Source of the DNA: Escherichia coli
GTDB taxonomy: Bacteria > Pseudomonadota > Gammaproteobacteria > Enterobacterales > Enterobacteriaceae
Length of the DNA stretch: 64,000 bases
Assembly (NCBI RefSeq): GCF_003334385.1
Contig: NZ_QOWN01000001.1
Strand: one strand, 5' to 3'
Positions within the stretch are counted from its first letter, which is position 1. The number at the start of each line of letters is the position of its first letter. A program made the position numbers and the translations under genes. A model generated the notes under the pieces. The model was not told where the DNA came from and did no database searches. It worked only from the letters and a program-made list of their open reading frames with translations. Below are positions 10,679-60,122 of the stretch, piece after piece.

Positions 10679-10702
10679 TGGCGGAAGATCACAGGAGTCG
10701 AA
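10679..10702 (-). repeat. 24-bp direct repeat identical to the 3' end of selC (distal att site of the island)
   Basis: tggcggaagatcacaggagtcgaa at 10,679-10,702 is identical to 60,028-60,051 (the 3'-terminal 24 nt of tRNA-Sec on the minus strand). Confidence 0.85.
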
Positions 10703-10834
10703 TATAAGTATTAATGCATTGATCTTAAATAATTTGTATGTGTTGGATAAATGAGTAACCCCCATAAGAACCCCCAAATGATTTTGCATGAAGGAATGAA
10801 GCTAAAATACATAATTGAATCAATTCTTAGTACT

Positions 10835-11680
10835 CTATTGTGAAGGTAACATTTCCGGATAGTGTCTGGCTATAATATCATTTAGCCGATCAACCAGTTC
10901 TGGTTTCCTGAACGTGATGTGCGCGGAGCCCTTCTTAAAGTATCTGATGCTGAACATTTCATCTTCATAGCACTCTTTACCCTGAACAGACCGGATGTGC
11001 TCATCCAGATGAATAGTGATGTTTTCCCGGTTGTCGGGGATCGGTTTGCCGCTGAACAGATGCAGCATTCTTTACAGGTCGGCAAGTCGATCGGCCTGTG
11101 GGCCGTTGTTCAGATGAAATCCCCATCTGTCCCACCTCACCAGATTGTTGACGATAATTTTACTGCCAAATTTACAGGGTGAATTGTTTTTGTAATTCCA
11201 GCTCAGTCCCCTGAAAACATTAATTACCCCTCGCTCAAACACCTCATCCTTATTCTGGTGCAGTTGTTCAAATGTGCTCAGAATGTTCGCTTCACTGATT
11301 TCCGGAAAATTATCGTACTCCAGTGACCGGTACCATGTATCACGGGCCTGCGCATCCATTAATGACAGCATCCCGGAACGTTGCATCAGGTCACGCCAGA
11401 TTTCGCGGTCAAGGTTGCGGGTGATGGCTTTCATTGCTGTTTCAGGTTTCTCCATGAGCCAGCATCCGCAGCGAAAATTCTGTTTCATCGCCCAGTCCCG
11501 TGCGCTTTTACCACCAATGCTTTTTGTCAGTACTGAGATTTCAGTCAGTTGCCGGATAAGCGTTTCGGTTTGTTGCAGTGCTGCATTCCGTACCGTCACA
11601 ACGTGTCGGATACTGGTGGAGCAGATAACGTCCGTATTCCCGGTGACCACTTCCGGATGGGAGATTGTGATGTTTGACAT
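10835..11680 (-). pseudogene. DUF4942-like conserved island gene interrupted by an in-frame TAA (11,072-11,074)
   Basis: ORFs 11072..11680 and 10835..11068 are in the same frame, separated only by a stop codon and one sense codon; combined ~281 aa. Family name is from recall of annotations downstream of CbtA-type toxins. Confidence 0.55.
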
Positions 11681-11702
11681 TATCGGTTTCCCTTTTGGTT
11701 TA

Positions 11703-11736
11703 TAAACGAAAACGCCAGCCGTATTCAGGCTGGCGT
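11703..11736 (-). terminator. Possible intrinsic terminator after the small DUF957-like gene
   Basis: Inverted repeat cgccagcc-gtattca-ggctggcg with an A/T run on the minus-strand 3' side. Confidence 0.4.
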
Positions 11737-11764
11737 CAGTGGAATGAAGTCTGGTGAGTAAGGC

Positions 11765-56738: not shown

Positions 56739-57088
56739 GAGTAATGTTCATCACCAGGTTATGTACGATGAGTTTTCCACTGTTTATAGCAATTATCTTG
56801 CTAATAACCAGGAGTAACCAGACCAACCGAAAACTCCGGGGAGGTGATTACCCGCTGGCAGGATAAATCTGTAGTTTTTGATGCCAGCTATAACGTGTTT
56901 GACGATAAAGTATTACGAAAGAACTTTAATGAGTTCATGGAGTAATTCGTTAAAGTAATTTACAACGCTATCCTTTTGCAAAGGAAACTTTCAGAAAATA
57001 ACCCCAGGGTAATCACCTGGGGAAGGAACACAGTGTTATTATTGGATAATAAATTATTACTTGTTTTAAAGTTACACTAATGCAATAT

Positions 57089-58132
57089 CTACTGATGCTG
57101 GATGCTTGAATGTTTTATCCCTGCTGCGGAAAAGGGCAATATCCAGGGCCAGATATATTCACCGTTCATATTTCTGCATTTCTGTACAATTTCCTCAGAA
57201 AGTGTCTTGTCAATTCTTTTCCACAGGTGCTCCTGCTGTCTTAAAATACTTTCGCATATTTCGAAATCATCTTCCTGAATCAGCATTTCGGCGCATTTAA
57301 TGATTTCTGATCGTTCATGCAGCACGGAGGAATGGTTATAGAGCCAGTTTACAAACAGCAATGCTTCCGAATATTGTCCCCATAATGGTGAGTATGTTGC
57401 ATAGTAATCTTCTGCCGTATCCAGAGAGCCGGAGAAGTCATGCCACACAGCAAGTGGAAATGGATGCAGATTTCCGCACAGCATTTCTGCGATGTAAGTG
57501 TTTGTGGCAAAGCCATGGCGAAAAGCTGTGGCGGCCTTAACATGTTCCCCGTTCAGAAAATGCAGGAGACCGAGTTCATACCAGTAAGGTGAAAATTCAT
57601 CAGCATGCTCTTTCAGTACACTGAAGGCTCGCTCATGATCGCCGGTGCGTAACAGCTCTGAACCCAACAACCAGCGAGCCCCCTGATTATCTTCAGGATT
57701 GTATGCCAGTATTTTATCAGTGAGCATAACCGCATCCTGATGGCGCTGTAAGTGCACATTTGCGAGAATTGCTGCATAAAGCGCGCGCAGATAAGGCCGG
57801 TTTTCGGGATGCATCCAGATTATTTCACCACAGAAACTTTCCGGGATGATACGATTACCTGCCGCCAGTCCTTTAAGAGCGGCGTTCAGTGCCTTACGCG
57901 GGGCATTCTGTTCCAGAAATGCATATGCCAGATGAGCGTGTATATCAATAAAGTCCGGCTCCCGTTGAGCAAGGCGTCGGAGTTTGTTGATGTAACTCGT
58001 CTCGCTGATTTCATCAGCGTCGTATGCATCAAGCACTTCTTCAAACTCCCCCAGCAATGGGCCAAACCAGGTATCCGGAAATACGAAATAACCCTTGTTA
58101 TCGTGCACTTCAAAGCATAATCTATCGTTCAT
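57089..58132 (-). CDS. Hypothetical protein with TPR-like helical repeats, adjacent to the integrase
   Basis: 347-aa ORF preceded by a ~400-bp AT-rich upstream region; no recognised catalytic motifs. Confidence 0.5.
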   Translation of the reverse strand: MNDRLCFEVHDNKGYFVFPDTWFGPLLGEFEEVLDAYDADEISETSYINKLRRLAQREPDFIDIHAHLAYAFLEQNAPRKALNAALKGLAAGNRIIPESFCGEIIWMHPENRPYLRALYAAILANVHLQRHQDAVMLTDKILAYNPEDNQGARWLLGSELLRTGDHERAFSVLKEHADEFSPYWYELGLLHFLNGEHVKAATAFRHGFATNTYIAEMLCGNLHPFPLAVWHDFSGSLDTAEDYYATYSPLWGQYSEALLFVNWLYNHSSVLHERSEIIKCAEMLIQEDDFEICESILRQQEHLWKRIDKTLSEEIVQKCRNMNGEYIWPWILPFSAAGIKHSSIQHQ

Positions 58133-58543
58133 TTTCTGAGCCTGTAAAACATGTGGTGATATAGTCTGAGAGCATAAAAGTTGAGATTCTGTGTATCAAG
58201 TCCTGTCTTGGCACCGAATGAATATTGCTTACGAAGCCCCTTCATGCTTTCCTTGAGAACAATAATTTTATCTTTATGTGAATCTCATTTTTTATAATGA
58301 TGTCAGATGATTGAAATGCTAAATTATATCTGAATCAACTTTTCCTTTGCTAAAGGTATCGAAATAACTACAAGGCTGTATTTTGTAATTGCCAATTTAA
58401 AAATGTCAATTTGTTTTTAATTATGTTTTTGTAATAAGTTTGAAGACGCAAAAAAATAATATAATAACAAAAATCCTCCAGCCTTGTAGGCCAGAGGATA
58501 AAATACTTAATTGAGGAAAACATCAGGGAAAAGTATTTCTGAC

Positions 58544-59728
58544 TTAACTTTCCCGGCTGGAGAGTGAATCAATGTAATCAGCGTACCATTGCATCATTTC
58601 ACGGCGGCCATCGAGATACAGGGCATGATTATAGGTACCCCTGATGGAATTTTTATCCACATGAGCTAACTGCATTTCAATCCAGGCGGAGTTAAAGCCT
58701 TGTTCATGCAGAATTGTACTCATGGTGTGTCTGAAACCGTGCCCTGTGAGTCTTCCCTTATATCCAAGTAATTCAATTACTTGATTAATGCTTTCCTTAC
58801 TAATTGGTTTGCGGGGATCATTTCTACCGATAAAGACTAGGGGATGATGTTTTGAGATTGGTTCAAGCTGCTTAAATAGCATAATAACCTGCTCAGAGAG
58901 CGGCACAATATGAGGTCGCTTCATCTTCATTACTTCTGCCGGGATCTCCCACAATTTTGTCTCAAAATCGATATCTTCCCAGCGTGCAAAACGCAGTTCT
59001 TGTGTTCGTACGCCGGTTAACATAATGATCTGAGTAGCTGTCTTAGTGATTATACTTCCGGTATAACCCGCCAGATCGTTGAGGAAGTGGGGAAGTTCAT
59101 TAGCAGTAAGAAAGGGAAAATGTACTTTTTTCGGTGTAGCTAAAGCACTGGCAAGATCGGGGGCTGGGTTATAGTCTGCCCGGCCAGTAACAATTGCATA
59201 GCGGAACACCTCACCACAGCGCTGGCGGACCTTGCGCATTTTCTCCAGAGCTCCACGTTTTTCCATTTTACGCAGTGCTTCCAGTAACTCCATTGGTTTG
59301 ATTTCGGCAATAGGGCGCTTGCCAATGTAGGGAAAAATGTCTTTTTCAAAGGTATCAATGATTTCATCACGATAGCGTAATGACCACCGATCGGCTTTTG
59401 ACTGGTGCCATTCGCGAGCAATAGCCTCGAACGTATTTTTCAGACTTATTTGCTGCGCGATTTTTTCTTCCTTTTTTGCCTCCCCTGGATCGCCTCCAGC
59501 AGCGAGGAGTTTCCTGGCTTCACTGCGTTTCTCGCGAGCATCGGCTAGCGTTACATCGGGGTATACGCCAATAGAAAGCATCTTTTCTTTACCAGCAAAG
59601 CGGTACTTCATGCGCCAGTATTTAGAACCATTAGTGTTAATCAGTAGATACATACCGCCGCCATCAGCAAGCTTATAGGGTTTGTCTTTGGGTTTTGCGG
59701 TTTTCACTTTGATATCGGTTAATGTCAT
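58544..59728 (-). CDS. P4-type tyrosine integrase
   Basis: 394 aa; N-terminal …GMYLLINTNGSKYWRMKYRFAGKEK… and C-terminal catalytic region (…HGFRHT…LAH…Y); immediately 3' of selC. Confidence 0.92.
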   Translation of the reverse strand: MTLTDIKVKTAKPKDKPYKLADGGGMYLLINTNGSKYWRMKYRFAGKEKMLSIGVYPDVTLADAREKRSEARKLLAAGGDPGEAKKEEKIAQQISLKNTFEAIAREWHQSKADRWSLRYRDEIIDTFEKDIFPYIGKRPIAEIKPMELLEALRKMEKRGALEKMRKVRQRCGEVFRYAIVTGRADYNPAPDLASALATPKKVHFPFLTANELPHFLNDLAGYTGSIITKTATQIIMLTGVRTQELRFARWEDIDFETKLWEIPAEVMKMKRPHIVPLSEQVIMLFKQLEPISKHHPLVFIGRNDPRKPISKESINQVIELLGYKGRLTGHGFRHTMSTILHEQGFNSAWIEMQLAHVDKNSIRGTYNHALYLDGRREMMQWYADYIDSLSSRES

Positions 59729-60027
59729 GACATCCTCCGGCTTTTGATGAATTCATGTTCCTGAGGGGGATTTCTGCCAGTAACTAACCTGATACCCCCA
59801 ATACACCCCTTGTATAACAAAGATGTTGTTAAAAGCCGTTGTTATGTATCACATTTTTCCTATTATGGGGGTGCTTGTATTTCAATAGGAAATAACACCC
59901 CCTAAAGTACCCCCAAAAGAAACTTGATACGGGGTGAAGTAGGTTGACCTCAGGATACAAATAAATACTGATATACAAGGGATTAGAAGAGATTTATTGA
60001 CATTGGGAGAGTTCAGAAGAGGTAAAC

Positions 60028-60122
60028 TGGCGGAAGATCACAGGAGTCGAACCTGCCCGGGACCGCTGGCGGCCCCAACTGGATTTGAAGTCCAGCCGCC
60101 TCACCGGAGACGACGATCTTCC
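60028..60122 (-). tRNA. selC: tRNA-Sec (selenocysteine tRNA)
   Basis: The reverse complement of 60,028-60,122 matches the recalled 95-nt E. coli tRNA-Sec (GGAAGATCGTCGTCTCCGGTGAGGCGGCTGGACTTCAAATCCAGT…TCTTCCGCCA). Confidence 0.92.

Follow-up and report, generated by a model that had tools for sequence, protein, structure and literature searches.

A 49-kb island in selC of Escherichia coli that matches the known papGII, IreA and Pgt pathogenicity island in a rarer integration frame

The window analyzed here, the whole stretch of 64,000 nucleotides from contig NZ_QOWN01000001.1 of the Escherichia coli assembly GCF_003334385.1, contains a genomic island inserted into selC, the gene of the selenocysteine tRNA (tRNA-Sec). 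The left chromosomal flank consists of setC-yicL-nlpA and a small rhuM pseudogene relic, and the right flank of yicJ-yicI. Between them, the island comprises a distal backbone module of the CP4/'yee' type, a first Gp2-family gene, the siderophore receptor gene ireA, insertion sequence (IS) remnants, an accessory block, the pgt locus, a second Gp2 group with alpA, a P-fimbrial (pap) operon, the adhesin gene tia and a phosphoethanolamine-transferase (ept) pseudogene. A tetratricopeptide repeat (TPR) gene and a P4-type integrase gene adjoin selC (Table 1). The GC content per 2 kb varied from 0.375 to 0.545 within the island, i.e., its composition is mosaic. The island is essentially a known pathogenicity island (PAI) in a rarer selC frame, which was found in 4 of about 110 carriers among complete genomes.

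The gene selC was the sole tRNA gene found in the window by ARAGORN, and Rfam concurred. The 24-mer of its 3' end, TGGCGGAAGATCACAGGAGTCGAA, occurred exactly twice in the window, once within selC (attR) and once at the left boundary (attL). No occurrence was expected by chance (100 shuffles). A third copy was absent from the window even when three mismatches were allowed, so that there is no internal selC att core. In K-12-type genomes, positions 10400-10702 of the window were found with 100% identity, followed directly by tRNA-Sec, i.e., as an empty site. Since two perfect repeats enclose the segment and K-12 shows the empty site, the 49.3 kb between the repeats (about 49.4 kb for the whole insertion) represent a clean insertion into selC. 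A preliminary description of the window had proposed a composite island in selC with 24-bp repeats, and its coordinates (10679-60122) were right; the two repeats lie at 10679-10702 and 60028-60051. Direct repeats of at least 40 bp, which could have marked tandem elements, were not found inside the island. The features of a pathogenicity island were present, namely the tRNA 3' end as insertion site, direct repeats, an adjacent tyrosine integrase, an empty site elsewhere and virulence genes.

Two observations concern the left boundary. The attL sequence varies among strains inside the GGCGGAAGATC part of the core: it is perfect in the window and in strain AMSCJX03, and carries a deletion of 1 nt in IAI39, of 3 nt in BL21/C41 and of 4 nt in UPEC132 and GN02350. 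Just outside the island, between setC and attL, lies the rhuM-family pseudogene relic (10439-10600, minus strand); K-12 has it at its empty selC site too. The gene rhuM is known from the Salmonella selC island SPI-3, and the relic has the appearance of a remnant left by a far more ancient island in selC.

The intact integrase gene encodes a protein of 394 aa with the Pfam domains Arm-DNA-bind_3 (5.9e-30), Phage_int_M (8.4e-36) and Phage_integrase (1.1e-27). Its score against NCBIfam PRK09692 was 317 bits, which is under the cut-off of 434 bits. With the selC integrases of BL21 and IAI39, the protein shared 99.2-99.7% identity, compared with about 42% for integrases from pheV, pheU and leuX. 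A matched integrase gene of E. coli O157:H7 genomes was about 89% identical in nucleotide sequence along part of its length. The preliminary description had counted a single integrase, and tblastn with six P4-type integrases indeed returned one intact gene in the window. The same search added a scar of about 30 aa that had been missed, the C-terminal end of a second P4-type integrase between papG and tia. This relic was 86% identical at the nucleotide level to K-12 intB over 58 nt and gave weak tblastn matches to the pheV, pheU and leuX integrases; it is closer to leuX/phe-type integrases than to the selC integrase. At the homologous place in IAI39, the Prokaryotic Genome Annotation Pipeline (PGAP) lists an 'integrase, partial'. 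The homology between the window and the selC island of IAI39 starts exactly within this relic.

Further relics of integrative elements were found in the interior. Three Gp2-like genes had been proposed; the first was firm and the second acceptable, but the third was marginal (Table 1), with a single pairwise match (E = 0.008) that covers 39 aa and includes a YHV motif. The orphan alpA gene held up against Pfam. As a module (42806-44505), the second Gp2 gene, the Gp2-like gene and alpA recur in the selC island of IAI39 beside other cargo. Together, the Gp2 genes, the distant alpA and the integrase scar suggest an old history of fusion between integrative elements. At the level of annotation, the island contained no conjugation genes (relaxase, coupling protein, type IV secretion system) and no P4-like satellite genes (primase-helicase alpha, psu/delta/sid, cos), the latter having been checked at this level only. 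By annotation, the island is non-self-transmissible and is neither an integrative conjugative element nor a P4-like satellite. Of the P4-like components, the integrase, AlpA and the Gp2-type relics were the only ones present.

The cargo was compared by megablast with 5,426 complete E. coli genomes. At least 80% of the two island halves was present in 99 and 110 of these genomes, respectively. In strain APEC O1, positions 10852-56727 of the window were found in four collinear segments with 99.3, 98.4, 97.9 and 97.2% identity (about 45.4 kb), located at pheV and adjoining the kps capsule genes. S88 and the E. coli type strain, ATCC 11775, also had the same cargo block. In sequence type (ST) 69, the portion compared (23301-58149) was collinear at pheU, and the homology ran through the TPR gene to 58149. 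Three publications that deal with these islands provide the context. PAI I(APEC-O1) is credited to Kariyawasam et al. 2006 (PMC2031896). A 2020 review lists PAI-APECO1-pheV and PAI-S88-pheV with 'Hek, P pilus, IreA' (PMC7545054). In a 2024 study, APEC O1 belongs to ST95, and its island is described as intP4.3_GI-pheV, with tia, pap, pgt, ireA, ibr and a remnant of yee (PMC11537424).

A classification is available in Biggel et al. 2020, which distinguishes 'type V papGII+ PAIs' (PMC7686366). There, islands of this type are described at pheV, pheU and selC, the minor sites with their own site-specific integrases, and a conserved type V PAI is assigned to clonal complex (CC) 95. PAI HVH103-selC is given as a selC-borne type V island of 29 kb with 31 genes in CC73. 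With a complete pap operon, a papG gene of class II and similarity to the CC95-type pheV island of APEC O1, the island in the window can be assigned to type V by sequence. It shares the cargo of PAI I(APEC-O1)/intP4.3_GI-pheV in the strict sense, and it has neither the pheV site nor the intP4.3 integrase. As far as sequence comparison can identify it, the cargo has been described before: it is the island with P fimbriae, IreA, Hek(Tia) and Pgt that is known from avian and urinary pathogenic E. coli.

The preliminary description had not recognised this architecture in any known island and had named a near-identical, described island as the finding that would contradict it. Such an island exists in PAI I(APEC-O1)/type V (97.2-99.3% in the alignment), and the selC-borne PAI HVH103-selC is published. 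Moreover, the whole selC island with both junctions was present, at 98.4-99.9% identity, in four complete RefSeq genomes, i.e., UPEC132, N50, UID2309220036 and GN02350. The islands of these four strains are apparently without individual descriptions.

The ends of the island differed from the cargo in their relationships. On the left, homology to APEC O1 begins at 10852, with 103 mismatches (about 9%) over 10852-11999 and then none over 12000-13499. The stretch 10703-12000 had fewer than 10 mismatches to the selC island of BL21/C41 and none to UPEC132, and 10688-12500 had none to the distant selC carriers. A left crossover can thus be placed near 12000. On the right, homology to APEC O1 ends at 56727 and that to ST69 pheU at 58149. 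The selC island of BL21/C41 matched the window only at 8261-12811 and 56704-64000, with 95-99% identity in the right frame. The arrangement selC-int-TPR-ept was found in 124 genomes (IAI39, CE10 and 122 others). At the distal end, the islands of IAI39, BL21 and AMSCJX03 have a yee module ending in a DUF4942 gene, followed by attL. The window shows the same arrangement, with integrase and TPR gene beside selC and the DUF4942 gene, the terminus of about 150 bp and attL distally. These islands thus make up a selC family whose ends are constant and whose cargo is exchangeable, and the island in the window represents type V cargo in that frame.

The distribution of mismatches around the island is informative on its transfer. 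Compared with UPEC132, the island had 33 mismatches in 23 kb. The stretch 56600-60232 had no mismatch to GN02350, and 0-1 mismatches across GN02350 and UPEC132. The identity with both strains ends at attL on the left side and 111 bp past selC on the right. The flanks of the window were 100% identical to many other E. coli genomes, and the right flank was near-identical to BL21/C41. A near-identical island between divergent flanks fits a chimera that was complete before its transfer, moved as one piece and then integrated site-specifically at an unoccupied selC gene. Since the mosaic was found as one block at pheV and pheU with its relics included, serial insertion at selC did not produce it; it was built before, and independently of, its residence there.

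It is therefore highly probable that a selC-specific frame and the known type V cargo of about 44 kb form one island that was integrated by site-specific recombination and moved as a unit into the chromosome of the window. The other explanations account for parts of the data. The preliminary description had read the relics as three backbones that accreted serially at one att site. Accordingly, two or three integrative elements would have inserted one after the other at selC in this lineage; of their integrases, a single one would have escaped decay, and the composite would have been built in place. The relics are real (two firm and one marginal Gp2 gene, alpA at a distance from the integrase and the integrase scar at 54030-54119), and IS scars separate the modules; the fusion of old elements can therefore be retained. 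The accretion at a single att site cannot: positions 10852-56727 form one block at pheV, and 23301-58149 one at pheU, relics included, with 97-99% identity; a third selC att core is missing even with three mismatches allowed; and the integrase scar resembles leuX/phe-type integrases, unlike the selC integrase. Accretion at selC in this lineage is accordingly very improbable; accretion did probably occur, but earlier and elsewhere. An assembly artefact, i.e., a contig of a pheV or pheU island misjoined to selC flanks, has a negligible probability. Misassembly is known to arise at repeated backbone modules in general, with nothing specific to this contig, but the same selC junctions were found in four independently assembled complete genomes, and both junctions are exact att repeats.

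Replacement of cargo in situ is a further alternative to which we attach little probability. Here, a resident selC island of the BL21/AMSCJX03 type would have exchanged its cargo through a double crossover in the yee and ept-TPR regions, with no site-specific integration. Strains of phylogroup A type often have selC islands with the same ends, and the left junction occurred in 734 genomes; AMSCJX03 matched it with 100% identity, including the perfect attL, and there is the crossover signature near 12000. However, the window has the frame alleles of the distant carriers GN02350 and UPEC132, with no mismatches over 56600-60232 and 10688-12500, while BL21 showed about 90 mismatches over 56704-58000 (about 5% in the TPR region). 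In addition, the crossover near 12000 is common to UPEC132 and hence older than the host of the window.

The transfer of a finished chimera, which we prefer, would involve the following steps. In some ancestor, and not stepwise at selC, frame and cargo would have been joined by homologous recombination in shared backbone, i.e., in the yee module on the left and in the ept-TPR region on the right. Once finished, the chimera would then have entered a phylogroup-A-like chromosome as a whole at the att site. By analogy with its family, the P4-type tyrosine integrase would recombine attP with the last 24 nt of selC, which regenerates the tRNA and leaves the 24-bp repeats. AlpA-type proteins of P4/CP4-57-type islands are known to stimulate integrase expression and excision, and the internal AlpA-type regulator may promote excision here. 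The CbtA/CbeA proteins and the antirestriction protein would aid retention and establishment.

Several points weigh against this explanation. Excision and integration, the activity of the integrase and the role of AlpA are assigned by family and are thus predicted. Which way the frame was swapped, with selC copies derived from those at pheV/pheU or the other way round, may be judged by frequency only (4 selC copies vs about 100 pheV/pheU copies). The island may have been imported by homologous recombination in the flanks from an unsampled donor with a setC-containing flank. Finally, PAI HVH103-selC, set beside the window by its published description, measures 29 kb compared with 49.4 kb here.

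A more far-reaching combined interpretation is possible, but we hold it only tentatively. The yee and ept-TPR pieces might serve as portable homology arms that re-target one cargo of about 44 kb among pheV, pheU and selC by a swap of integrase and att alone. Jointly with this, and with the same reserve, the window might represent a recently transferred, still excision-competent, selC-retargeted island of extraintestinal pathogenic E. coli (ExPEC) in a commensal-type (phylogroup-A-like) chromosome, already edited from the resident leuX island through gene conversion.

Table 1. Features of the selC island and its boundaries in the window.
Feature	Position	Strand	Remarks
attL	10679-10702		perfect 24-bp copy of selC 3' end; left boundary beside rhuM relic and setC
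selC-type left frame: non-coding terminus of about 150 bp and DUF4942 gene (10835-11680, internal stop)	10703-12000	-	
CP4/'yee'-type distal backbone	11765-18435	-	UPEC132 PGAP annotation; WYL and GTPase matches
Gp2/YagK-YfjJ family gene no. 1	21968-22708	+	Pfam PF11726 (YagK_YfjJ_C), E = 5.7e-34
ireA, TonB-dependent siderophore receptor	23482-25530	+	NCBIfam IreA equivalog, 1518.5 bits vs. cut-off 1197
IS256-family pseudogene and intact 1.3-kb IS3-family element	25710-28179		annotation, repeats, Rfam
Accessory block: OLD-family nuclease, hypothetical, IbrA-like, IbrB-like, PerC-family, hypothetical	28296-33605	+	PGAP names
pgtA, pgtB, pgtC (-) and pgtP (+), phosphoglycerate transport	34586-40809		PGAP names
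Gp2 gene no. 2	42806-43372	+	YagK_YfjJ_C, E = 6.6e-4; REP_ORF2-G2P, 3.1e-5; acceptable
Possible divergent Gp2-like gene	43631-44203	+	E = 0.047; marginal
alpA	44272-44505	+	Pfam PF05930, E = 2.5e-10; 14 kb from integrase
P-fimbrial operon papI(-)BAHCDJKEFG, class II PapG	44848-53955	+	11/11 open reading frames open
Second P4-type integrase relic, C-terminal end	54030-54119	-	between papG and tia; 58-90 nt
Tia/Hek/Hra-family outer-membrane adhesin/invasin	54315-55061	+	identical to WP_001350744.1 'Tia' of APEC O1 and IAI39
Phosphoethanolamine-transferase gene (ept), pseudogene	55236-56738	+	premature stop near 56286
selC-type right frame: TPR gene (57089-58132), P4-type integrase (58544-59728), int-proximal arm region	56704-60027	-	comparisons with GN02350, BL21 and IAI39
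selC (tRNA-Sec)	60028-60122	-	3'-terminal 24 nt (60028-60051) = attR

The names of the remaining genes were transferred from the PGAP annotation of the UPEC132 island, which is 98.7-99.9% identical, and key genes were verified directly. The CP4-57-like toxin-antitoxin/antirestriction segment of the preliminary description corresponds to a module of CbtA/CbeA, antirestriction, RadC, DUF932 and GTPase genes, which spans 10835-18435 including the DUF4942 gene. Its order is DUF957, DUF5983, cbtA (12459-12836), cbeA (12883-13260), DUF987 and radC/JAB (13629-14105), followed by the antirestriction gene (14120-14605), DUF932 (14696-15514), DUF905, a hypothetical gene, a WYL/helix-turn-helix regulator gene (16668-17348) and a YeeP-like GTPase gene (17551-18435). 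Between the GTPase gene and the first Gp2 gene, two regions stood out. Two convergent genes for hypothetical proteins of 316 and 262 aa occupy 18541-20276; neither protein matched NCBIfam or PADLOC. Since IAI39 has a different gene there, this place may be a variable cargo slot. The adjacent 1.7-kb AT-rich stretch (20276-21968; GC 0.375 in 20001-22000) contains only small open reading frames. It was only 77-91% conserved in the IAI39 island and matched no Rfam family.

The pap operon with class II PapG, the hra/hek-like adhesin gene and the pgtABCP locus were all present as had been proposed (Table 1), and the gene taken for iha is in fact ireA. PapG was identical in 336 of 336 residues to PapG-II WP_000758687.1 of UPEC132, which has the same PGAP accession in APEC O1, and the Pgt proteins were 99.5-100% identical to those of UPEC132. 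PapGII P fimbriae bind globoseries receptors with Gal-alpha-1,4-Gal in the kidney, i.e., they confer kidney-tropic adhesion. IreA is an iron-regulated receptor that functions in iron uptake, Tia/Hek is an adhesin/invasin, and PgtP imports phosphoglycerates under the control of PgtABC.

The intact IS3-family element has inverted repeats of 41 nt (26870-26910 and 28139-28179) and an ALIL frameshift pseudoknot (27205-27321), which, together with tRNA-Sec, was the only Rfam family found in the window. It is located directly upstream of the OLD-family nuclease gene (26870-29756 for both). The nuclease gene (28308-29756) is N-terminally truncated and covers positions 139-523 of the 578 positions of the PADLOC Old profile; it is probably a defence gene that was cut off by the IS3-family element. 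PADLOC found no complete defence system, only the truncated OLD nuclease, WYL and weak BrxP, DndC and LeoBC matches. In the accessory block, the IbrA-like gene (30730-31962) belongs to the 3'-phosphoadenosine 5'-phosphosulfate reductase family, and the IbrB-like gene is frameshifted. An IS3 scar lies between the pgt locus and the second Gp2 gene. Six hypothetical proteins of the island had no match in NCBIfam.

In ept, a stretch of about 0.7 kb (55887-56588) matched the yjgX pseudogene of KpLE2, the leuX island of K-12, without a single mismatch. Over 55901-56546, there were 60 mismatches to the usual ept allele of the island, and both flanks of the tract were identical to the island allele. 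In sequence terms, 55887-56588 qualifies as a clean gene-conversion tract. The tract brings in the premature stop (Table 1) and thus inactivated the phosphoethanolamine-transferase gene in the source strain. The differences from the other selC copies fell almost entirely in papA and papE/papF (45-47 kb and 51-53 kb), with up to about 150 mismatches per kb, and the other pap genes nearby were almost identical among the selC copies. The pattern corresponds to the mosaicism of antigenic pap alleles described in Biggel et al. 2020 (PMC7686366).

Little of this is new; the cargo is a well-studied ExPEC island tied to invasive urinary infection through papGII. The island illustrates clearly how one cargo can occupy three tRNA sites with two unrelated integrases (about 42% identical), and its crossover points are mapped to about 12000 and to 56727/58149. 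It also provides evidence that the chimera moved as a unit into a different chromosomal background, which would be of interest to surveillance should papGII islands be spreading into lineages of phylogroup A.

Among known systems, LEE (the locus of enterocyte effacement), PAI I(536), SHI-2 and the tia-PAI of enterotoxigenic E. coli (ETEC) H10407 share with the window the selC target and a related integrase, the match coming from O157:H7 genomes. The tia-PAI, known by description, also has a tia-family gene close to the integrase (2020 review, PMC7545054). It is a selC island of 46 kb with tia and leoA; the window has the tia-family gene and a GTPase gene with a weak LeoBC match. The PGAP annotation of the UPEC132 island contained no type III secretion system or eae genes, no hly with F17/CS12 and no iuc genes; without these, the island does not belong to LEE, PAI I(536) or SHI-2.

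The frame is that of BL21/C41, IAI39, CE10 and AMSCJX03, with which the window shares selC, an integrase of at least 99% protein identity and the TPR gene, after which IAI39 also has ept and tia. The distal yee module with its DUF4942 and attL end, which adjoins the rhuM relic and setC, is likewise shared. The cargo differs, consisting of GH31 and major facilitator superfamily genes and an autotransporter gene in BL21, of cutCD/dsdCXA and others in IAI39, and of BREX in AMSCJX03. The selC island of AMSCJX03, from a giant panda (20436-40461 of the compared stretch), has the same left end, Ag43 and, further in, brxL. In other strains, the frame thus holds defence or metabolic genes as its cargo. 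The islands of UPEC132, N50, UID2309220036 and GN02350 correspond over their entire length, but setC is missing from their flanks, which diverge by 2.5-5.6%, their ept gene is intact and free of the yjgX tract, and their attL has the 4-nt deletion. They also differ in their papA and papE/F alleles and in extra insertions of IS1 or group II introns.

In cargo, the closest described systems are PAI I(APEC-O1) and PAI HVH103-selC. The island of APEC O1 differs by its pheV site, by an integrase 41% identical to that of the window, by an AAA-domain gene instead of the TPR gene and by a DUF4942 allele that is about 9% divergent. Its distal end continues into an EAL-domain gene and kps, ISEc12 is located between papG and tia, and its papA and papE/F alleles are unlike those of the window. 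In the same order as the window, it has the yee/CbtA-CbeA module, Gp2, ireA, the IS256/IS3 scars, the OLD nuclease, the ibr-like genes, pgtABCP, Gp2-alpA, papGII, tia/hek and ept. Its IreA, PapG-II and Tia share PGAP accessions with UPEC132, to whose proteins the copies in the window are identical. PAI HVH103-selC is of the same PAI type at the same tRNA site, and a site-specific selC integrase is reported for it.

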